DNA of 64,000 nucleotides from Cytophagales bacterium (GCA_965277185.1 CBDICC010000026.1:13079-77078), one strand, 5' to 3'; shown: positions 28,399 through 41,376, counted from the first letter of the stretch. The notes: generated by a model from the letters alone, not told the origin. Numbers and translations are program-made.

Positions 28399-29733
28399 TT
28401 ATGGCTGCTTTATCTGTTGTACAAAAAGGGGGAGGTTCGCAGAAGCGATATTATTCTTCCCATCTCGCACATGCACAAATAATCGCATCGGACCTTCATA
28501 TTTCGGAGCTGTAAACGTAAGTTCAAGACCTAAATCACTACGTTGTGTTGTAAATGTTACATTTAAGGATGTAGGTTTTAATTCCTTATCTATTAAGTTT
28601 TTACGAATCCTTTTTTCTGGAATCCATTCAAATTCGTATCGCAATGAATCTGACTCAGGATCAGATACCTTAAGATCTACCGAGTAACTTGATTCCGTAT
28701 GAATTACTTCATTCGAATCGATGCCATTTAAGCTAAAAGAGTGAATTCTAGGGGCTAAATTATGAAATGGTTTTCCTTCCCAATAATCGTTTATGGCTTC
28801 AATCATTTGTGTTTTCTCTCCTTGTGGCCCGAGGAGGCTAAACCATGTATGCGTATATTCCTGCTTATTCCCAAAATAAAATGAATAGGAACCGAGCAAG
28901 GATTTGTCTTCTTTCATTTCTTTAAAAATGCTAATAAAACGCTGCGATTTAACGGAATCTGATGGTTCTACAGTCATATTCCACATTCGATCCAAATAAG
29001 GATCCCAATATCCATAATTTCCAAATTCAGAAATCAAATAAGGTCCATCGTATCCCCAGACCACATCTTTTCGCTTCTCTTGAATACTATTAATCTGGCC
29101 AAACTTATTAAAACTAATAAAGTCTAAATCAGAGCAGTATCGAGTAATTACAGGAATATGAAATCTTGGATAACCAGGTACGGCTGTAGTGGTAGGATGA
29201 TTTGGGTCCAACTCATGAATTCGGCGGGACACTTTATTTAAAAATTTATAAGCAGCAATATCAGGTTTTTGATTCCATTGAAATTCGTTTCCAATACACC
29301 AGGCTAATAAGGCAGGATGCTTTTTGTATCGATTTACTTGTAATTCAATTAGTTTGAATAATTGTTTACATACATTACTATCCGAATAATCGAAGTAATC
29401 CGTGTGATGGAGCCATAATGTCAAAGTCACACTCATTTCATACTTTTGAGCGGAATCTAAGGTCGTCAATGCATCATCCATTCCATACGTACGAATGGAA
29501 TTTGCCCCGATTCGATGCAACAAAGCTACATTTTTGGCAGAACAAGCACCTTTTACATAGTGTGGTTTTCCATTTCGTATAAATTGAAACGCTCCCTCTT
29601 TCACCTCTTTTATATAGGTAGCTCCCTCCAACGATTTATCAAACAAACTTTGTTCGTCTTTATTTGACTCGGAACAGCCTGCCAGACAGAGTAAAATGGT
29701 GCAGATAAGATATATACCTAGATTCGGTTTCAA
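28399..29733 (-). CDS. GH2-like TIM-barrel glycoside hydrolase lipoprotein
   Basis: GANSIRTY, HPALLAWCIGNE (acid/base), GPYLISEFG (nucleophile). TTG 29733 gives MKPNLGIYLICTILLCLAGC with a lipobox. Confidence 0.85.
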   Translation of the reverse strand: MKPNLGIYLICTILLCLAGCSESNKDEQSLFDKSLEGATYIKEVKEGAFQFIRNGKPHYVKGACSAKNVALLHRIGANSIRTYGMDDALTTLDSAQKYEMSVTLTLWLHHTDYFDYSDSNVCKQLFKLIELQVNRYKKHPALLAWCIGNEFQWNQKPDIAAYKFLNKVSRRIHELDPNHPTTTAVPGYPRFHIPVITRYCSDLDFISFNKFGQINSIQEKRKDVVWGYDGPYLISEFGNYGYWDPYLDRMWNMTVEPSDSVKSQRFISIFKEMKEDKSLLGSYSFYFGNKQEYTHTWFSLLGPQGEKTQMIEAINDYWEGKPFHNLAPRIHSFSLNGIDSNEVIHTESSYSVDLKVSDPESDSLRYEFEWIPEKRIRKNLIDKELKPTSLNVTFTTQRSDLGLELTFTAPKYEGPMRLFVHVRDGKNNIASANLPLFVQQIKQP

Positions 29734-29796
29734 TAATCCTAAAATGTTATACTTTTGTTTAGATCGTGTAAATATCCGAAACAATCTCTGCATTTC

Positions 29797-32700
29797 ATGG
29801 CCATAACCATTAAAAAGCCTACAAAAAAACAACATTTGTTTTTGCGTATTATGATCGCGATCGGGATGTTGGCTGCAATTACCTTTTGGATTTGGTATGG
29901 AACAACCATTCGAACTTATTCCACTATCTTATACTTATTTCTGACCTTATCCATTGCCTACAAGGTTTTAAGGGTACTTATTGAATGGTACTACTTATTT
30001 AATATAAACATACCAACAGACAAGCCCATAGATGGTAATTCTGCTTCGGTCGACATGTTGACTACATATTGCCCTGGAGAACCAAAGGAATTAGTAAAAC
30101 GCACTTTACTGGCAATGAAATCAGTTACCTATCCGCATGAGACCATCTTATGTTGTGAAGGTCCAGATGAAGATTTGGAATCTTTTTGCCAATCCAATGA
30201 AATTCAGTTTGTCTTTCGTACTGATCGTACAGATGCTAAAGCTGGTAACATAAACAATGCTTTATCTCAAACCTCAGGGGATTTATGTGTAATACTTGAT
30301 CCTGATCATATTCCATTTCCAGATTTTTTAGACGAAGTTGTACCTCATTTTGACGATCCGGAATTGGGGTTTGTTCAAGTTGTACAAGCGTACCATAATC
30401 ATGACGATAGTTTTGTGGCTGCTGGTGCAGCAGAACAAACGTATTTCTTCTATGGTCCAATGATGATGGGCATGAATGGGCAAGAGACGGTGCAAGCTAT
30501 TGGAGCGAATTGTACCTTTCGTAGAACGGCATTAGATTCAATTAATGGGCATGCTGCTGGCTTAACGGAAGATATGCATACTTCAATGTTGTTGCATGCT
30601 AAAGGATGGAAATCAAAGTATCTTCCAAAGATTGTGGCAAAAGGCCAAGTTCCTTCTTCGTTTTCAGCCTTTATTAAACAGCAAATAAAGTGGAGTCGAG
30701 GATCTTTTGACCTTCTTCGTAATGTCTATCCAACGATATTCTCAAGCATTTCTTTGAAGCAGAAAATCTACTACTTAACCATCTGTATGTACTTTTTGAT
30801 AGGCTTGATCACGTTTATTGACTTTTCCATACCGGTGGCATCACTTATTATGAGTGATTATCCGATAATAACCAATCTTCAACAATTCATTGTAGGAGTG
30901 GGGCCGATGGTTTTAATGACATTTTTGATTCGTGTTTATTCCAAGAAGTGGTTATTAGAAGATCATGAACGTCGATTATTTTGGAAAAGTGGTTTCTTAG
31001 TTATGGCTTCTTGGTATGGGTATTTGGCAGGATTTATATACACTATCTTCAATAAAAAGGTACCGTATATTCCGACAATCAAATCCTATGATCAAGATAA
31101 TGAGTTCAAAGTCCATTTACCAAATATTATTTGGATAGGAATATCATCAACGGCAGTATTTTATGGATTGATCAGAGATTTAACTCCCTTTTCGATTATG
31201 ATGAGCCTATTTGCCTTCTTCAATATTACCGTCTTAACTTGGGTAATTGTTTCTTCACAAGGAAAATGGATGTCCCATACCAAGAATGGATTATTTAATA
31301 GTCTAAGAAGCTTATTCACACTTTTTAATCAATTAATAGTGCGAGCTATTTCTCCACTTGCCCTCTTATTATCATTGTTCTGCTTGGGTTATTTGGGATA
31401 TCATTCCTTTATTCATTCCAACTATGATCCATATTCAAATGAACTTAATGAATATGATTTTCGATCTGCAACTCCAAAAACGAATCAATTTCTTACAGGA
31501 ATTTATCATTCGTACTCTGACACTGTAAACCGAACTCAATCAATTGAAAATGGCAATTTAGCACCATTTTATGTTGCTTGGGGCGATGCGGATAGTCTAT
31601 ATCCTAGACTACAATTGGAAAAAGCAGTTGAAGAGGGAATGATTCCAATGATTACTTGGGAACCTTGGGCGAGTACATTTGAGAAGTATGTGGATGATAC
31701 ACTGTTAAACGCGGAGCAAGGCATATTTGAAGCTATAATAGAAGGCCGATTTGATTTTTATTTAGATCATTTTTCTAATCGCCTTAATGAACTTAAAGGT
31801 CCTGTTTTTATTCGTTTTGCCCATGAAATGGGGAATCCTCAATATCCATGGAGCAAATCCTCAGACTCGGATTATATTTTAGCATGGCAATACGTTCATA
31901 CTTATTTGGCGAAGAAGAATCCAGATCAACTCATTTGGGTATGGAATCCCTGGAATGATCATTTAAGTCATTTTCCCGGAAAAGAATACGTGGATTGGGT
32001 AGGATATACTATGCTGAATTATGGTGATATAAAAGATGTTTCGGAGTCAAAAGAATTCATAGAAATGTATCAGCGCTATATTTATTTAAATCAAAAACTT
32101 AAAAAGCCTGTGATGTTGGCCGAGTTTGGATCAACCTCCTTTGGGGTGAATAAAACCAACTGGATTTCGAGCGCTTGTACTGATATAGCTACTTATTACC
32201 CTGAAATTGCAGCTGTGGTATTTTTCAATTCAAGTAACGATAAATATTGGCCAAAAGGAGTGGAGACCACTAAAACCATAGATTGGTCCATTTCTCAAAA
32301 AACCATAAAAGAACATCAGCTTCGTTTAAATCAGTCAAAAGAGCTACAGCCTGCAATTAGTGATATGATACGAACACAACACCCTGCCTTTAGCATGGAT
32401 TCCTCTAGTTCAGATTATTCTAGTATAGAATACAACGTAGATGACAACTGGCGCGTAGGTAACAGACCTTTAACCAGAAAACAGTTAGTTACTGATTTTC
32501 AACTATTAAAATCCCATGGGTACAATTCAATTTTTCGTAAGAAAGTGGATCTCTATTCCTACAACGTATATCAAATTGCTTCTGAAACGGATTTAGTAGT
32601 TGATCAAGGCTTTGATCTTAGCCCTTCTATTGATTATGCCAGTGATAATGTTAAAAAGGATTCTATTCGAAATGCGATTTTGTCTTTTGTTCAAGCTCAT

Positions 32701-33255
32701 AAAACAGATCAAGAAATCCGAAGTTGGGTAATGAATTTCAATACATATGGTAACTTAAAACATTATTTTGCCAAACCTTATTTGTACCAAGTACAATCCG
32801 CATATAACGTATTTATTTCCGAATTAAAAAAGGAAATATTGGAGATTGACTCAAATTTTAATATTCTACTATTCAATTACATATGTACATCAACCTATAG
32901 TGATTCTTTCAATGGGTATCAACAATCATTAGGGTATACTGATTATTACAATAATCGACGATTAAAAGAACAAAATAGCCCTTTGTTTAAAATACTAAAT
33001 TCTAATAATCCTTATTTGGAAGGAATGAATTATGAATTTACTGCACACTCTGTTTCTGAGGTACCAGAAAAGTCGTTTCAAAGGTTTGAATGGGTCCTGT
33101 ATGATGATGGAATCTTTGCTTTATACCGAAAAACGGGGCAAACCGTAAACATTTATATTCCAAAGGGAGTTCGAGGAAACTTGAAACTAAGATTAAACGT
33201 ATATACAGACGATCAAATGGTTTATACGGTGTTCAAAAGCTTAAATTTGGAGTAG
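29797..33255 (+). CDS. cellulose-synthase-like GT2 fused to a GH26 domain and a further C-terminal TIM-barrel-like domain
   Basis: KAGNIN, DPDH, TED, QQIKW plus TM helices; MITWEPW, IRFAHEMGNPQYPW, WVWNP, YVDWVG, KPVMLAEFG. Start moved to ATG 29797. Confidence 0.9.
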   Translation: MAITIKKPTKKQHLFLRIMIAIGMLAAITFWIWYGTTIRTYSTILYLFLTLSIAYKVLRVLIEWYYLFNINIPTDKPIDGNSASVDMLTTYCPGEPKELVKRTLLAMKSVTYPHETILCCEGPDEDLESFCQSNEIQFVFRTDRTDAKAGNINNALSQTSGDLCVILDPDHIPFPDFLDEVVPHFDDPELGFVQVVQAYHNHDDSFVAAGAAEQTYFFYGPMMMGMNGQETVQAIGANCTFRRTALDSINGHAAGLTEDMHTSMLLHAKGWKSKYLPKIVAKGQVPSSFSAFIKQQIKWSRGSFDLLRNVYPTIFSSISLKQKIYYLTICMYFLIGLITFIDFSIPVASLIMSDYPIITNLQQFIVGVGPMVLMTFLIRVYSKKWLLEDHERRLFWKSGFLVMASWYGYLAGFIYTIFNKKVPYIPTIKSYDQDNEFKVHLPNIIWIGISSTAVFYGLIRDLTPFSIMMSLFAFFNITVLTWVIVSSQGKWMSHTKNGLFNSLRSLFTLFNQLIVRAISPLALLLSLFCLGYLGYHSFIHSNYDPYSNELNEYDFRSATPKTNQFLTGIYHSYSDTVNRTQSIENGNLAPFYVAWGDADSLYPRLQLEKAVEEGMIPMITWEPWASTFEKYVDDTLLNAEQGIFEAIIEGRFDFYLDHFSNRLNELKGPVFIRFAHEMGNPQYPWSKSSDSDYILAWQYVHTYLAKKNPDQLIWVWNPWNDHLSHFPGKEYVDWVGYTMLNYGDIKDVSESKEFIEMYQRYIYLNQKLKKPVMLAEFGSTSFGVNKTNWISSACTDIATYYPEIAAVVFFNSSNDKYWPKGVETTKTIDWSISQKTIKEHQLRLNQSKELQPAISDMIRTQHPAFSMDSSSSDYSSIEYNVDDNWRVGNRPLTRKQLVTDFQLLKSHGYNSIFRKKVDLYSYNVYQIASETDLVVDQGFDLSPSIDYASDNVKKDSIRNAILSFVQAHKTDQEIRSWVMNFNTYGNLKHYFAKPYLYQVQSAYNVFISELKKEILEIDSNFNILLFNYICTSTYSDSFNGYQQSLGYTDYYNNRRLKEQNSPLFKILNSNNPYLEGMNYEFTAHSVSEVPEKSFQRFEWVLYDDGIFALYRKTGQTVNIYIPKGVRGNLKLRLNVYTDDQMVYTVFKSLNLE

Positions 33256-33319: not shown

Positions 33320-34081
33320 TTAAAAATCCATAGAGAAGCCGTCATAGGCTAAAAACACATTCGATGGTAGTTTGGCATCTATTTTAGCATGTTGACCTAA
33401 ATAATGACTTATATGAGTAAAATAAGTTTTCTTTGGTTTTAACTCCTTTACCAATTCTAGCGCTTCTTCTAAGTTGTAATGAGAAATATGTTTATCGATT
33501 CTAAGGGCATTAAGAATGAGCACGTCTAAATTTTGGAGTTTCTTCTTTTCCTCATCACTTATAAAATTGGCATCGGTTACATAGGCTAAGTCTTTAATTC
33601 TAAAGGCCGTAACCGGAAGTTTATGGTGCATCACTTCTATGGGATGAATTTTGTTTTTTCCAATTGAAAATGGCTCTAACGTTATTGGGTTGGCTACAAT
33701 TCGAGGGATTCCTGGGTAGGGGTTATCCGCGAAAATATAATGATATTCTGATTTTATTTGCTTCAGCACCCGTTCCGTTGCATAAATGGGCATATCCATT
33801 TCATACTTAAAATTGTATGCTCTCACATCATCTAAGCCCGCTATGTGGTCTTTATGTTCGTGTGTGAATAGAACGGCATCGACTTTTTGAATTTGATTAA
33901 CCAACATTTGTTGGCGAAAATCAGGACCAGTATCTATTACCAGCTTTAAATCTTCCAACTCGATGTATACGGACGAACGTAATCGTTTATCTCTAAAATC
34001 AAGGGATTTACACACATCGCAATCACATGCAATGACAGGTACTCCCTGTGACGTTCCTGTACCTAAAAAGGTTAACTTCAT
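33320..34081 (-). CDS. MBL-fold metallo-hydrolase (PhnP/YycJ-like)
   Basis: LGTGTSQGVP, IDTGPDFRQQ, THEHKDHIAGLDD, THISH, LAYDG. Confidence 0.93.
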   Translation of the reverse strand: MKLTFLGTGTSQGVPVIACDCDVCKSLDFRDKRLRSSVYIELEDLKLVIDTGPDFRQQMLVNQIQKVDAVLFTHEHKDHIAGLDDVRAYNFKYEMDMPIYATERVLKQIKSEYHYIFADNPYPGIPRIVANPITLEPFSIGKNKIHPIEVMHHKLPVTAFRIKDLAYVTDANFISDEEKKKLQNLDVLILNALRIDKHISHYNLEEALELVKELKPKKTYFTHISHYLGQHAKIDAKLPSNVFLAYDGFSMDF

Positions 34082-34109
34082 GTTATGTCAGATCTAATCT
34101 AATATCGAA

Positions 34110-34385
34110 CTAAAGCGATAATTTTGTTTGCTGAATTTGAGAAAAAATCTCTTGGCTCTTCTCAGTGAAATTGGTCGGATCAAGTTGAACCGTTTTAATT
34201 AAATCTACCAAACAGGTTATTTTACCTTCCGTAGTGAAATATTTATTTACAATAATGATCTTTTGATCCTTCAGTAGGCAAAATCCAGCTTTAAAATTCC
34301 CCTTTTCATAACGCAATACATAATCAGATTCGGCAAATATTGATTCCAGTTTGGTTAGAAACGATTTTGTATATTTTACGGACAT
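34110..34385 (-). CDS. conserved hypothetical protein
   Basis: LRYEKGNFKAGFCLL...IIVNKY; compact and co-oriented with its neighbours. Confidence 0.75.
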   Translation of the reverse strand: MSVKYTKSFLTKLESIFAESDYVLRYEKGNFKAGFCLLKDQKIIIVNKYFTTEGKITCLVDLIKTVQLDPTNFTEKSQEIFSQIQQTKLSL

Positions 34386-34635
34386 GACTTCAAATTACGG
34401 ATCAAATAGGAGCTAGATAAATATAAATATTCTTTTTTAAGGAAGTAGATTGCTCATTCAGAAAGTTGAATACCAAATAGTTAAACTAAAGAAGGAGTGA
34501 AGCTATGTTGATATAAATTCAGAAGCTACTTCCGGTATTAATTAAGTAGATATAAACAACAAATTTAGATCTGTTGAAACTATATAGGAAGGATTAATCT
34601 TTATTTGATATGGTTAGTTAATGGCTTAAAGAAAC

Positions 34636-35004
34636 CTAAACAGTCCATTTTTTAACGGTTTCAACTAACAAATCAAAATCAAGTGGTTTTTGTAAATAGG
34701 CATTAATTCCAACCTCTTCAAAATCCTTTTTAGAATAATTTTGGGCATTACCTGTAATTACAATAATTGGTGTGCTGGCTTTTGCAGAATCCGATAACGC
34801 TCTAATGTTACGTGTGCATTCCATCCCGTCCATTACAGGCATGTTAATATCCATTAAAATAGCATCATATGCATCGGAATCCAACATATCCAAGACAACC
34901 TGACCATTCTTAGCATTTGAAACTTCATAGTTCTGAAACTTCAATATTTTAGTCGTTAGGTTTTGAATTACTGAACTATCCTCCGCTATTAGTATTTTCT
35001 TCAT
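34636..35004 (-). CDS. single-domain response regulator (CheY-like)
   Basis: ILIAEDS, ILMDINMPVMDG, VITG, QKP. Confidence 0.95.
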   Translation of the reverse strand: MKKILIAEDSSVIQNLTTKILKFQNYEVSNAKNGQVVLDMLDSDAYDAILMDINMPVMDGMECTRNIRALSDSAKASTPIIVITGNAQNYSKKDFEEVGINAYLQKPLDFDLLVETVKKWTV

Positions 35005-35013
35005 TGTACTAAA

Positions 35014-38000
35014 TTAATAATTATTATTAATATAATCTCGATACTTGAGCTTAAAGTTAGCAAATTCCAATTGTATTTTTTTGATTTTTGATTTTAAATT
35101 TTGCGTAGAGTTTGTTTTTAACTCCTTTTCAAGTACTTGCGCCATTTCAGAGATTAACGTCAAACCAATTGTTCCTGCCGCTCCTTTAATTGTATGAAAA
35201 TGACTTGATAATATCTCGTATTTTTTTTCTTTCATTGCCGCTTCCGATTCCATCAACAATCGATCTGTTTCCACGTCAAATTCGGCATAAACGTCCAGAA
35301 TCATCTCTTTCCCTCCAATATCAATCAATTGTTGCACTACTTTCGAATTGAAACGGAGTGAATCATCTTGCGCTTCATCCTTAGAAATCACTTTTTCAGG
35401 AATGAAATTATGTTGATTTTTATCAAGTTGTTCTGGAATTTCGCTAAACCAATTCCGTAAACTTAATTCTATTTCACTAATGGTAATTGGTTTGGGTACG
35501 TATCCGTCAAATCCTTCATTTAAGAATCGATCTTTATCCCCCTTCATTGCGTAAGCAGTCATTGCAATGATCGGAATCTTGTTATATGATTTGCTTTTCC
35601 TAATTTTATTCATCGCGGTAACTCCATCCATCACAGGCATTTGAATATCCATAAAAATAATATCAAACGTATGAGTCTCCGTTTTCTCAATTGCACTTTT
35701 CCCATCCACTGCCATAATTACTTGACATCCAAAAGATTCTAGAATTTTTGTTCCCACTTTCAAATTGGTCGAATTATCATCGACAAGCAATACATTGATC
35801 CCCGTAAAATTTGCTTTCTCATGCATCGGAGAGAGGTAGGATAGGGTGTTCTGAGGACTCAATTTGGTGTCTTCTACATTCATTGTAAACCAGAATGTAC
35901 TTCCCATACCGACTTTAGATTCTACGCCAATCGTGCCTCCCATTAGTTCGCACAATTGTTTTGCTATAGCCAACCCAAGACCGGTTCCTTTATGCTTCTT
36001 GGTTCGAGTACTATCGAGTTGTGAGAATTGTTTAAACAGGTTTTCTTTATCCACCTCTCTAATTCCAACTCCGGTATCTATTACTTTTAGCCGAAGCTCT
36101 TTACGCTTATTTTTATTTTTTAATAATTCTAACTGAATTACGACCGAACCAATACTTGTAAATTTAATTGCGTTAGAGGCCAAATTAGACAATATCTGAA
36201 TTAGTCTGGTTTCATCATATAGAAGTGTACCGGGTAGTTTTTCTGGTAAATCCAGTACTAGTTTAATTTTCTTGTTCTTCGCCTGGGTATCAAATAGATT
36301 GTATATTTTATCTAATGTGATTTTAATATCATTGGCTTCTGGATAGATTTTAAATTTTCCACTTTCGATTTTTGATAAATCCAATATGTCATTAAGAATA
36401 TTCAACAAAACAAGGGAAGATTTTTTAATCGTATCGGCATAATCATGTTGATCTTGATTTAGTTGAGAATGCATCAGTAATTCACTGGTTCCAATGATTC
36501 CATTCATTGGCGTACGAAGTTCATGGCTCATATTTGCCAAAAATAATTCCTTTACTCTTAATGATTCCTCCGCTAAGTCTCTCGCTTGAATCAATTCTTG
36601 TTCTGCTTTCTTTCGATCCGTAATATCTTTGCTGTTCGATGCTAAACCGATTGGCACTCCATCTTCATCATATACTAACTGAACAGAAAGTAATGCATCA
36701 AAAATCTGACCTTTTTTCCGCTTCTGTTTCAATTCTCCAGACCATCCGCCTTTGGTCATAATGGCTTCCACGATTTCCTCTGTGTGCAAGGTCAGACGAC
36801 TGTTAAATACGTCCACATTCATTCCAATCAATTCGTTTCTACGGTAGCCGTACATCAAATTGGCAGATTCGTTTACAAATTGAATGTCACCTTGCATATC
36901 TGCAAACACAACTGCTTCCCAGTTGTTTTGAATGATATTTTCGAAGAGTTTAAGTCCTTTTTCGGATTCTTTTAATCGGGTAATATCCCTGATCATCCCT
37001 TCAATGGCAATGGCCTTTCCATGTTCGTCTCTCAATAAATGGGCATTCACATGGACGTGTATAATTGATTTATCTTTTCTCCAAAAGGTCGCGTCGAAGT
37101 TATCTACAGACTTATTTTCTGCAATTTGACGTTCAAATTCTCTTATGTCTTTTGAATCTACGTAAATGGATCTTGAATCCATCCCAACGATTTCCGATAC
37201 ATCATATCCTAAAACCTCTTTTACGGACGGACTGATCATCGTGACAACGCCTACTAAATCAATTCTAAAAAACAAATCATGCAATGATTCAAAAATAGAT
37301 CTGAATTCCTTCTCACTTTGTAACACTTTTAATTGTGCTTTTTTGATTTGAGTAATATCACGAATTACCCCTTCAGTACCGGTGATTACATGCTGATCAT
37401 TTTTAATGATTTTGGCATTGATTAATACGTCTAATACGTCTCCACTTTTATGTTTGACTCGTGTTTCAAAGTTTTCTACAAACGAATGATCCATCAACAA
37501 TGCTAGAAGTCCCTCTCGATCAGATGGGTTCGCATATAGTTCTTGCACCTTACCATGCTGAATTTCTTCAGTAGTGTATCCAAATATTTTATAACAAGAA
37601 GGGGATACTAAATTAATGTCACCACTTATGGATGTTTGATAATAAATGTCTTGAAAGGACTCAAAAATACTTCGAAATTTAGTTTCATTCGCTTGTAATT
37701 TAGCTTCTGTTTGTACTTTATTAATTGCTTGAGCTATTTGATTAGAAATAAATCTTAAAGTTTGTAAATCGGATTTCTTCAAGTTATGCGAAGATTGATA
37801 TTCCTGCAACGCAATTATTCCAATTACTTTATCATCGACAATCAGTGGAGCTCCCATCCAAACTTCAGGTATAATACCCACAATTTGAACTTGCTCCTTT
37901 GATGAAAAGGTCATGATTTTATCCTTCGTCAAATATGCCTCTTTTTTACTACTAATAATGTATTCTGTAAGACCACGATTGAACTTACGGTCCATTATTG

Positions 38001-41000
38001 TTACTATTTCCTCCTTATTTTCATCTCTATAGAAAGGAAAAGATATCTTCTTTCCATCGTCATTAATTAAAGCAATATAAAAATTATTTACAGGAAGGAT
38101 CTTCTTTAACTCCATATGGATTGCCTCATATAAGTCATCCAAGGTTTTTGCTCGTACGATGGCTCCTGAGATATTGTTGTAAACTTCTTTGGTAAGTTCC
38201 GCTTTTTTATCCTTCGTAACGTCCAAAAATATACTTCTGGTAGTTACAATCGTATCTAATTGATGGTTTGAATTAGAACTTCCTTTCAAGTAAACGACGT
38301 CTCCTTGCTTTGTCATAAATCTGGTCTGTAAATTGACTGATTTCCCTTTGCCGTCCCAAACCTCTTGCATCATTTTTTTACAATGATCTACTTCATCAGG
38401 ATGAATAACATCAAATACATTAAGTTCACGTATTTCTAGTTTGGAATAACCAAATGTATCCAACCATGCTTTGTTGACAAATATGAAATTCCCATCTGGA
38501 TCCACGCTTTGCATGATTTCATTGGCATTGTCAAACAGATCTTGTAATCGATTCTTACTTTCGATTAGTTCATTCAACACCAATTTCTTAGAAGTAATAT
38601 CTTCTCCAATGCTTGTAACACCTACAATTTTATTTTTGTTGTCATATACAAAGATGTTACTCCAATTAAACAATCGTACATCGCCATGTTTGGTTATTAC
38701 ACTTGTTTCTAGTTGAGTATCTAAGTTTTGAGACCGAAGGGCATTATCGTATTCTTTTACTCTTAGTTTTCGCTCGTCTTCTGGTAAAAAAAGGTCGAAG
38801 TAATTATGACCTATGATTTGGTTGGCCTCATAACCTGTTTTTCTAATAAAGTGATTGTTACAATAAACCATTTGACCTTCCGCATTGATTGAAATAGCAG
38901 AGAGACTTATATTATCAAGCGTTTTTCTAAACAGTAATTCCGATTCTTCTTTCGCTTTTGCCTCCTGAGCCATTTGTTCCGCTTTCTTACGCTGCGTAAT
39001 GTCCAAACTAGCGGTTATGTATCCTTTAAATTTATTGTTCTTGTAATCTAAATTTGGAATCCCTGTTTCCAATACCCAACCGAAAGTTCCATCTGGTCTT
39101 TGTAACCTATAGGATATTTCGTATTTGAGTTGTTTTTGAAGGGCATGATCAAACGTTTGTTCTACTAATTCAATATCCGCTTTGTGAATTTGAGACATCC
39201 ATTTTGTTCCAGATGAATTTTTAAAAGGTTTTCCAGTATAGTTGTACCATTGTTTACTGAAAAAATAACTTTTATTATTTGAATTCGTCATTCGAATCAA
39301 AACAGGGGAGTTATCCGCGATTGATTTGAACTTTGTTTCACTTTCTAAAATCGCATTTTCGGATTTTATACGTTCAGTAATATCTCGAACAATTGCTTGA
39401 ATGTAAATCTTCCCCCTCAGTTCGAAGGTATTTAAACTTACTTCCGCATCAAATGGGGTACCACGTTTTGTAATATGTTTCCAGTAAAAGAATTGTGGTT
39501 CTCCTTCCAAGGCAGCTCCAATCTTGTTCATTGCCTTTTCGTCTGACTTTTGTCTGTCAGGTTGATATTTTGGCGAAAACTCGTACGGAGGATGACCGAT
39601 TATATCTTCTCGCTTGCACTTAAACATTTCTAATGTTTTCTCGTTGCAATCAATAAACATATCCTGATCCATGATGAAAATAGCATCATTGGCTGTGTCG
39701 AAAAGCATTCTAAACTTTTCCTCATTTTCCATCAATCCTTGCTCATTCTTTTTTCGTTGAGAAATATCACGGCTAATCGCAATGATCACTTCTTGCCCAA
39801 AAAATTCTCCTTTTCGGAAACTAACTTCTTTTGGAAAGACCTCTCCATCTTTCTTCTGAGCCCACCATTCAAATGAAACGGAGTCACCTTTTTTAGCTCG
39901 TTTAAAGTTTTTCTTAAACAGCTTCATGTCATTTCGACCTGGTACTCCAAAAACGGCTGGCGTTTTACCCAAAATAAATTCCTTTGGGTATTTATATGTT
40001 TCTATTACCAATTGGTTTACATCAATGATTTTGCCTTCCATGTTCTGGATGTAAATCATTTCAGCACTCTTATTGAATAAATCCCTAAATGTTTTTTCAC
40101 TGTTAACCAGATTGGATTCTTGTTCAATTCGTTTGGTTATATCTCTAGAGACTCCAAACTGCAGTAAGAATTTTTTATCCTCAGAGAGTTTATTTTGAAA
40201 TCGATCTTGAAGCCATATGTACTCTTCAGATCCCTTCTTTTTCACCCGATACTCTCTAATTCCTTTCCCTTTTGGATCTAACAACTCACTTTGATTTCCC
40301 AATTTGACCATATCCTTAGGATGTAGGATACTTTGAAATAATTTTTGATCTTTTAATTCTTCAGGGGAATACCCGGTTATTTTCTCAATACTTTTACTGA
40401 TAAACAACGTTTCTCTTATTGCAGGGGCCTTTATATCATACTTTACTTTGTAAATAACTTCATTAATAGATTCCAGTATTTCTGTTTTCTCCGTTTCGCT
40501 TTTTTCCAATGCAGCTCTGATTCCATATTGATCTGTGAGTTCCAATAGATTGACAACCAATACTTCTTCGCCGAAATAATGCCCTATACGAAGTTTCATT
40601 AAGTAATAATGAATAGACTTATCCTCTTCGGTCGTGGTAATTTCAAAACTGATTGGAGTACGGTTAGTCCATAGCTGGGTAAGACGTTTATCTAAACTTT
40701 TGCGATCTAATGCCCCAGCAAAGTCAAATAGTTCACCTTTCCGACCGATAAAATTTGATTTTTCTATTCCAAATCGATCTAATACAGCTTGGTTCACATT
40801 TTTATAAACCCCTTTTTGATCAAAAATGAACATTAGATCCGAACCGCTATCAAAAAGTTCGTAATATGTTTGCTCAGATTGTTCTAATTTTTTAGTCGCA
40901 ATAAATTCCGCAGTCACGTCATTTGCAACCACTAAAGCATACTTTTTGGATACAAGATGGCTTCTATATTTCAGAAGTACCATTTGTGAAGATTTAGCTT

Positions 41001-41376
41001 GTTTTACTTTAAAGTATCCTTGTGAAAATCCTTCTTCCTTTAATTCTTTTAAATAATCGTTGTATTCTTCTTGTCTCTTTTCATCAAAAAAGTTACCTAA
41101 TTCTCCGGCGGTTTGATCCGCTCCATGTTTCTGGATTAAAAGCTGTGAAGCCTTATTTAGCGCTAGAATTTTTCCTTTTTCATCATGAATGCACATAAAG
41201 TCGGTTGAATACTCAATGATGGTATCCAATAAACCTGGTTCATCAATATATTCCAAAAAAGAATCTGTGTATGCTTTACTTAAGCCTTTTAAGCGGCTGT
41301 TCTCTTGCTTTACAGATGCTAGTTCCTTTAATAATTCTTCCTTTGTCTTATTTGAATCACTCATTAATACTCCCAA
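35014..41376 (-). CDS. cytoplasmic hybrid histidine kinase: about 11 PAS, GAF, HisKA, HATPase, REC and Hpt domains
   Basis: Repeated PAS/PAC motifs (RDITER, LDITQRK); [15 protein letters not shown]; GTGLGLAI; [11 protein letters not shown]; HTIKGAAG. Confidence 0.95.

Follow-up and report, generated by a model that had tools for sequence, protein, structure and literature searches.

A predicted two-gene beta-glucan module in a Cytophagales bacterium: a BcsA-like synthase fused to a GH26 domain, paired with a GH158 lipoprotein

What polymer would a bacterium make with a polysaccharide synthase that carries glycoside hydrolase domains on the same polypeptide, and what would those domains do to the chain? 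The question is raised by two divergent genes at positions 28,399 to 33,255 of a 64,000-nucleotide stretch of DNA from a Cytophagales bacterium (GCA_965277185.1 CBDICC010000026.1:13079-77078; the whole stretch is called the window here). One gene encodes a 1152-residue protein, P0001, in which a glycosyltransferase family 2 (GT2) synthase is followed by a glycoside hydrolase family 26 (GH26) domain, a third domain related to family GH158 and an immunoglobulin (Ig)-like tail; the other encodes a lipoprotein of family GH158. From sequence comparison and structural models we consider it probable (roughly 0.6) that this two-gene module makes and processes an endogenous beta-1,3-containing glucan, and does so independently of cyclic di-GMP (c-di-GMP). 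The original prediction, drawn from the DNA alone, had proposed a minimal exopolysaccharide (EPS) system producing a mannan, a glucomannan or a mixed-linkage glucan. Its observation is confirmed and its interpretation is partly supported: the synthase, the GH26 domain and the gene linkage have stood, and the GH2 label for the lipoprotein, the mannan product and EPS export have not.

Both open reading frames (ORFs) lie where they had been placed, and a single polypeptide does join a BcsA-like GT2, transmembrane (TM) helices, a GH26 domain and a third barrel, with the motifs verified. The synthase gene runs from ATG 29797 to its stop at 33255, within an ORF that itself opens at TTG 29755. The database gene call (P0003) begins at M19, 18 codons later, and gives 1134 residues; we favour the 1152-residue start because homologues conserve the N-terminal PTKK..F.LR. 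The gene is single-copy in the host genome. For the family alignment we used the window protein and 80 homologues from species genomes (n = 81), among which the window's synthase is a divergent member, with at most 45% identity to the others and the most reduced third domain among those examined. A Pfam scan of the full-length protein matched GT2 families alone and missed GH26. The AlphaFold2 model has a pLDDT (predicted local distance difference test) of 83 and a pTM (predicted TM-score) of 0.73.

The N-terminal half is strongly supported, by sequence homology, as a PilZ-less BcsA-like processive synthase. In a PDB sequence search BcsA matches residues 20-490 at 2e-34, and the AlphaFold2 model matches BcsA structures at 1.3e-25 over ~510 columns. 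The D, DxD, TED and QQIKW motifs noted originally are all present, as D86, DPDH (168-171), TED (257-259) and QQIKW (295-299). All 78 sequences with coverage at D86 have Asp there, and DPDH, the ED of TED, Q295, Q296, K298 and W299 are invariant across the 81-sequence alignment, as are the gating-loop residues Y424, T427 and K429. The gating loop reads YIPTIK against FxVTxK, keeping T and K, with F replaced by Y and V by P. In place of the QxxRW of BcsA-type synthases all 81 family members have QQxKW, with Lys for Arg. By homology to BcsA, we infer uridine diphosphate glucose (UDP-Glc) as the donor.

A Pfam scan found no PilZ domain in the synthase. Furthermore, searches of the host genome (G000; Bacteroidota, 7.3 Mb, 96% complete), with positive controls in reference genomes, found none of BcsB, BcsC, PilZ and GGDEF; the absence of bcsB, bcsC and PilZ claimed originally is hence borne out by the genome search, and bcsZ, also part of that claim, was not searched for. 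The host seems to lack c-di-GMP signalling altogether. Because the genome has neither a diguanylate cyclase nor PilZ, the synthase probably works without a c-di-GMP switch, in agreement with what had been proposed.

Hydropathy and the AlphaFold2 model place seven TM helices in the synthase, in the order two TM helices, the cytoplasmic GT domain, two TM helices, an amphipathic helix resembling interface helix 3 (IF3), the gating loop, two TM helices, a basic loop and an extra TM helix. The fifth and sixth helices correspond to BcsA TM7-8, where the C-terminus of BcsA is cytoplasmic, and the seventh stands where BcsA has its PilZ domain. The family means for Lys plus Arg are 2.6-6.8 in loops placed in the cytoplasm and 0.3-0.8 in loops placed in the periplasm; the loop preceding the seventh helix has a mean of 6.8. 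On account of the BcsA-like topology, the one extra helix and the family-wide positive-inside pattern, the C-terminal ~600 residues (GH26, third domain and Ig-like tail) are predicted to be periplasmic, the side of the membrane on which the original prediction had put GH26.

The GH26 domain, taken in isolation, scores 35.1 bits against PF02156 (cut-off 20.2). Its best solved relative is the lichenase CtLic26A, matched at 1e-14 to 2e-16 in sequence and in fold with a TM-score of 0.75-0.80 and a root-mean-square deviation of 2.6-3.0 Å. A beta-1,3-xylanase is second at 3.5e-9, and mannanases are the weakest matches (6hf2 at 1e-4; BoMan26A with a TM-score of 0.55). The sequence and model comparisons strongly support the view that the domain resembles lichenase far more than mannanases. 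Both catalytic Glu had been read from HEM (676-678) and AEF (775-777), and this reading holds: LHE and AEF align with CtLic26A, and E677 is kept in 76 and E776 in 80 of the 81 family members. A separate ~570-residue protein composed of two GH26-like halves (…RWAHEM…, …ITEMG…), scoring just below the Pfam GH26 threshold, is encoded near the synthase in seven of the related loci (L025, L033, L042, L059, L076, L078 and L079).

The third barrel had been described as degenerate, as indeed it appears to be: alignment and modelling identify it as a remnant of a GH158 paralogue, predicted to be catalytically dead. It contains the strings PLTRKQL (891-897) and WVMNFNT (977-983), the latter in place of WNIGNE, so that the acid/base position is Asn, and ~110 residues are deleted, the nucleophile strand included. 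In a Cytophagia-type homologue the third domain keeps WNIGNE and TEFG and aligns over its full length with the window's GH158 lipoprotein at 1e-21; the window's own third domain reaches only E 0.22 against the same lipoprotein. The folds that best match a model of the domain by itself (pLDDT 80) are those of GH158(Pro) and BuGH158. The acid/base Glu is kept in 21 of the 81 family members, and in a tree the third domains form a clade of their own, apart from the stand-alone GH158s. The Ig-like tail, aligning with the FEW...YRLYL ends of the homologues and of the lipoprotein (P0002), is the equivalent of the GH158 Ig domain.

The lipoprotein had been labelled GH2-like, which rested on a weak PF02836 match (7e-7) and did not survive the full-length match to a family of solved structures: it aligns with GH158(Pro) (9oro) at 9e-56 over residues 65-458, barrel and Ig domain together, and with BuGH158 (6pal) at 2e-39, and its place in the tree is among the stand-alone GH158s. 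The NE and SEFG motifs reported as intact are so, as GNE (E170) and SEFG (E256). Its ORF (28399-29835, minus strand) offers three possible starts, the longest of which overlaps the synthase start. From ATG 29793 the protein has 464 residues (P0002) and the gap to the synthase is 3 bp; from TTG 29733 it begins with MKPNLGIYLICTILLCLAGC, a canonical lipobox signal, and the gap is 63 bp. The ~63 bp head-to-head spacing given originally therefore holds for the TTG start and fails for ATG 29793. The sequence TACTTTTG at 29750-29757, 39 nt before the synthase ATG, matches TAnnTTTG, which we take to be the Bacteroidota -7 promoter element, and on that basis it is a putative promoter element; the longer forms of the lipoprotein ORF would run across it, which favours the short form starting at TTG 29733.

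A second GH158 gene (contig C31:88448-89653, L084) shows 32% identity with the lipoprotein and 39% with GH158(Pro), and is thus a closer GH158(Pro) paralogue than the lipoprotein is. It lies directly after a GH16-like gene (…WSDEFDG…), and the two probably form a laminarinase pair with a catabolic role, separate from the GH158 linked to the synthase.

A full-length search with the synthase returned 1571 relatives, all of the named ones from Bacteroidota or Balneolaceae, and at least 557 species genomes carry a relative. In an even sample of the phylum Bacteroidota a match was present in 16 of 401 genomes (~4%) and in 15 of 179 genera; the module is sporadic, not core. We counted neighbourhoods at 80 related loci, with ORFs called in this analysis. 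A GH158-like gene of ~440 residues adjoins the synthase at 70 of them, directly upstream on the same strand in 55 cases and divergent, like the window's pair, in eight, which bears out the proposed link between hydrolase and synthase in other genomes and sets chance aside as the reason for the pairing. All the adjacent GH158 copies keep both catalytic Glu. No other neighbour of the synthase, an exporter included, is conserved across the 80 loci. In the closest relative, at 45% identity, both the head-to-head arrangement of the pair and the genes downstream are as in the window.

Shorter variants also occur, consisting of GT2 alone (~600 residues) or of GT2-GH26 (~800-850 residues). A Pontibacter GT2-only gene still has a divergent GH158 neighbour; the gene that follows this synthase, considered as a detached GH26, encodes a low-complexity protein instead. 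In other phyla GH26 homologues (32-38% identity) occur as stand-alone genes immediately after unfused GT2 genes of 520-550 residues, and one of these GT2s shares 42% identity, QQxKW and IPYIPTxK with the window's. Because unfused GT2 and GH26 adjoin in other phyla, a functional pairing of the two is supported. In two of these loci, L089 (5358-8134) and L090 (5445-8110), GT2 and GH26 are separate genes whose stop and start overlap. Just upstream stands a tetratricopeptide repeat (TPR) protein with a signal peptide, directly before GT2 in L089 and with a 103-residue ORF between in L090; the C-terminal half of the L089 protein is beta-barrel-like. A search of the host genome for a homologue of this TPR partner, run without a positive control, found none.

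The following scheme would account for the module. By homology to BcsA, the GT2 would polymerise glucose from UDP-Glc in the cytoplasm and the chain would be threaded through the synthase's own membrane channel. The tethered GH26 domain and the GH158 lipoprotein would then cut or transglycosylate the emerging chain and so set its length or shape, and the dead third domain may, speculatively, serve as a glucan-binding guide or docking module. The built-in chain-length control proposed originally is retained to this extent, as a reasonable deduction from an intact, predicted periplasmic GH26 in cis. By analogy the polymer is most likely a beta-1,3-glucan or a mixed-linkage beta-1,3/1,4-glucan, because characterised members of both hydrolase types need Glc-beta1,3-Glc at subsites -2/-1. 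CtLic26A reportedly requires a beta-1,3 linkage between these subsites. For GH158(Pro), a beta(1,3/1,4)-glucanase, the linkage between subsites -2 and -1 must be beta-1,3, and cello-oligosaccharides are not attacked (PMC13195107). Mixed-linkage glucan is hence the sole survivor of the three polymers first proposed, and plain beta-1,3-glucan now stands beside it.

Several points weigh against this reading. Identity to characterised hydrolases is 22-30%, at which specificity transfers weakly. The topology is a prediction, and for this organism we found DNA runs only and no RNA-seq. The Arg that the family replaces with Lys is reported to be fully conserved in BcsA, CrdS and BgsA, and the synthase clade falls outside the tree of that study (PMC6821405). 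The type of glucan linkage is not readable from the GT2 sequence, and a model of a related synthase was judged equally compatible with cellulose (PMC10374906).

One alternative, which we regard as possible if not favoured, is that the glucan stays in the envelope, as with NdvB or the osmoregulated periplasmic glucans (OPGs), and that GH26 and GH158 transglycosylate or release it to give short, branched or cyclic periplasmic beta-glucans. The design is the same, a periplasmic retaining domain of clan GH-A being fused through TM helices to a PilZ-less BcsA-like GT2 (PMC10237404). Such a model fits because no exporter is linked: an outer-membrane or TPR partner is not conserved across the 80 Bacteroidota loci and was not detected in the host genome. 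A tethered endo-enzyme, present 1:1 at the channel exit, also speaks against long chains. At eight of the 80 loci (L002, L004, L055, L059, L060, L062, L069 and L078) a ~800-residue multi-TM protein with a Sulfatase fold (PF00884), absent from the window, is encoded directly downstream of the synthase. It might be a lipid-headgroup transferase-like enzyme that decorates the glucan, presumably resembling OpgB, and its addition would suit an envelope glucan.

Against an envelope glucan stands the record of GH26 and GH158 as hydrolases; we found no transglycosylase of either family in this analysis. Presence in only ~4% of the sampled genomes argues for no core envelope function, and the unfused relatives lie behind a TPR and beta-barrel-like protein, suggesting export. 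The missing porin gene is weak evidence in any case, given that a rhizobial mixed-linkage glucan uses a TolC encoded elsewhere (PMC13438883). More specifically, the module might be a Bacteroidota counterpart of the osmoregulated or cyclic glucan synthases, in which GH26 would transglycosylate the chain and thereby release, branch or cyclise it, the dead GH158 would hold it and the free GH158 would set its size; we hold this version to be doubtful.

A second alternative, for which the case is likewise tentative, is a secreted EPS, curdlan-like or mixed-linkage, that would leave by an unlinked outer-membrane route and be cleared or released by GH26 and GH158 in the manner of BcsZ, PssZ or PslG. 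Synthase-dependent systems usually include a periplasmic hydrolase, and the sporadic, accessory distribution of the module would suit such a role. The acidic residues after the lipobox Cys might direct the lipoprotein to the cell surface. Export keeps a place in the argument because the rhizobial TolC is unlinked (PMC13438883) and because the unfused relatives have a TPR partner, in the operon order TPR protein, GT2, GH26. Nevertheless an export component is linked in none of the 80 loci, BcsB and BcsC are absent from the host genome, the TPR partner was not found there in a search lacking a positive control, and covalent fusion of hydrolase and synthase is foreign to classical EPS systems. 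The linked TPR/beta-barrel exporter and the c-di-GMP receptor by which Bcs, Pga, Pel and Alg are recognised are found neither at the locus nor in the genome. With no outer-membrane component linked, and with a periplasmic or cyclic glucan as a live alternative, the proposed minimal EPS system is not upheld.

A synthase of cellulose (beta-1,4-glucan), with GH26 as a BcsZ-like endoglucanase and GH158 serving something else, is improbable. The best GT2 matches are cellulose synthases, databases give homologues that name, and the best NCBIfam models are cellulose synthase equivalogs (TIGR03030, E 1.7e-47). However, the scores fall far under the CelA and BcsA cut-offs (TIGR03030, 161.9 against 699.1 bits; PRK11498, 139.7 against 992 bits), the host has no BcsB, GH158(Pro) leaves cello-oligosaccharides uncleaved, and neither the conserved partnership with GH158 nor the descent of the third domain from GH158 would be explained. 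The idea of a synthase of mannan or glucomannan coupled to a GH26 mannanase, suggested by the fact that most characterised GH26 enzymes are mannanases and by some database names (beta-mannanase), was rejected as very improbable, since GH26 sequence and fold rank lichenase well above mannanases, the GT2 is closest to UDP-Glc-using BcsA with a marginal archaeal mannosyltransferase match (0.007), and the partner family GH158 acts on beta-1,3-glucans.

Table 1. Features of the synthase gene, the divergent lipoprotein gene and the region between them, in window coordinates (aa, amino acids; AF2, AlphaFold2; MSA, multiple sequence alignment; IF2, interface helix 2).
Feature	Position	Strand	Basis
Synthase P0001, 1152 aa (GT2 + GH26 + pseudo-GH158)	29797..33255	+	ORF, domain scans, PDB sequence search, AF2 model
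N-terminal TM helix pair, aa 14-62	29836..29982	+	hydropathy; AF2 helices 10-37 and 43-68
Cytoplasmic GT2 catalytic domain, aa ~80-310	30034..30726	+	Pfam GT2 families, BcsA matches; D86, AKAGN 147-151, DPDH, TED, QQIKW
BcsA-like channel region: IF2, TM 333-351, TM 364-382, IF3-like helix 396-417, gating loop, TM 438-460, TM 464-486	30661..31254	+	hydropathy, AF2, fold
Gating loop VPYIPTIK, aa 422-429	31060-31083	+	BcsA fold match; conservation
Extra seventh TM helix, aa 513-539	31333..31413	+	hydropathy; long AF2 helix 499-542
GH26 domain, aa ~565-845, lichenase (CtLic26A) type	31489..32331	+	PF02156, PDB sequence search, fold
Predicted GH26 acid/base E677	31825-31827	+	aligned with CtLic26A
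Predicted GH26 nucleophile E776	32122-32124	+	aligned with CtLic26A
Third domain, aa ~874-1070, truncated, predicted dead GH158-like barrel	32416..33006	+	MSA, homologue alignment, domain-only model
C-terminal Ig-like beta-sandwich, aa ~1075-1152 (FEWVL...LKLRLNVY)	33019..33252	+	AF2 strands; homologue alignment
Divergent intergenic region, 63 bp, containing TACTTTTG	29734..29796	.	sequence
GH158 lipoprotein, 444 aa, (beta/alpha)8 barrel + C-terminal Ig-like	28399..29733	-	match to solved GH158 enzymes, tree
Lipoprotein signal peptide MKPNLGIYLICTILLCLAGC, lipobox LAGC, Cys then SESNKDE	29674..29733	-	sequence
Predicted GH158 acid/base E170 of P0002 (CIGNEF)	29284..29286	-	aligned with GNE of GH158(Pro) and BuGH158; Glu in 69/69 adjacent homologues
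Predicted GH158 nucleophile E256 of P0002 (LISEFG)	29026..29028	-	aligned with TEFG/TEWG of solved enzymes; Glu in 70/70 adjacent homologues

Downstream of the synthase, on the minus strand (33320-41376), the window encodes a metallo-beta-lactamase (MBL)-fold hydrolase of 253 residues, a 91-residue ORF, a single-domain response regulator and a 2120-residue hybrid sensor kinase that, to judge from domains read in its sequence, appears rich in PAS repeats. A metagenome contig that carries the closest homologue (45% identity) has the first three beside it in the same order, and the MBL gene of that contig also matches the Apyc1 Pfam family. The recurrence of this trio may reflect a regulatory link or no more than synteny.

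In the literature searched we found no description of a GT2-GH26 or GT2-GH158 fusion or of a Bacteroidota beta-glucan synthase. The family is uncharacterised there, and the kind to which it belongs, a synthase with a fused periplasmic glycosidase, is already known. An endogenous beta-glucan pathway is likewise undescribed in that literature for Bacteroidota, a phylum known mainly as a degrader of such glucans. In the module a synthase is joined to members of two families of which only degradative enzymes are known, and the c-di-GMP control by which proteobacterial systems are defined is missing. Furthermore, the family offers a natural domain series, from GT2 alone through GT2-GH26 to GT2-GH26-GH158 with the third domain active or dead, alongside the unfused operons with TPR. 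If the product were an osmoregulated or cyclic glucan, a periplasmic glucan pathway would have been traced beyond Proteobacteria for the first time, and GH26 and GH158 would gain their first role in biosynthesis. With the product known, there would be one more described bacterial route to commercially interesting polymers, the beta-1,3 or mixed-linkage glucans; a large uncharacterised GH158 cluster would acquire a physiological role; and there would be reason not to score every metagenomic GH26 or GH158 gene as catabolic.

Set beside known enzymes, the GH26 domain shares with CtLic26A (the GH26 of C. thermocellum CelH; PDB 2bvd, 2vi0) a compact GH26 barrel, ITWEPW, the HE acid/base and the AEF nucleophile at ~23% identity; CtLic26A belongs to the secreted, degradative enzymes of the cellulosome, whereas the activity predicted here is tethered to a synthase. 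The lipoprotein has 26-30% identity to GH158(Pro) (PDB 9oro/9p25) and BuGH158 (6pal) and has in common with them the barrel and Ig domain, the catalytic Glu pair and those W and E residues to which a part in translocation has been ascribed. Because the tunnel salt-bridge Arg104 aligns with Thr in the window lipoprotein, we do not claim processivity for it. The characterised GH158 enzymes are catabolic, belonging to a polysaccharide utilisation locus or a biomass-degrading community, whereas the window's GH158 is paired with a synthase.

With BcsA (PDB 4hg6, 4p00, 9b8v) the synthase shares the GT2 fold, the D/DxD/TED motifs, the interface helices, a gating loop with T and K, and the TM channel. 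It differs in having QQxKW for QxxRW and an extra TM helix with periplasmic domains for PilZ, and BcsB, BcsC and the c-di-GMP machinery are absent from the window's genome. The unfused TPR/GT2(QQxKW)/GH26 operons (GCA_016849975.1; a Chitinispirillaceae metagenome-assembled genome) belong to the same GT2 and GH26 subfamilies but keep them as separate genes, with a TPR and beta-barrel-like protein and without GH158; they too are uncharacterised.

The closest described architecture is that of 'Orphan'/NdvB (PA1163 type; PMC10237404), the pseudomonad GH17-GT2 protein proposed to make cyclic beta-1,3-glucan. Common to both is one polypeptide that combines a PilZ-less BcsA-like GT2, its own channel and a periplasmic retaining domain of clan GH-A, without BcsB or BcsC, and for both it is proposed that the nascent beta-glucan is trimmed or reshaped by the protein that makes it. 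In 'Orphan'/NdvB that domain is a GH17 at the N-terminus, whereas the window synthase carries GH26 and a GH158-like remnant at the C-terminus, and Pfam, PDB sequence and fold searches gave no GH17 match in it. The window system further differs in its separate GH158 gene, a conserved partner, and in belonging to Bacteroidota. It is an analogue of 'Orphan'/NdvB in architecture only.

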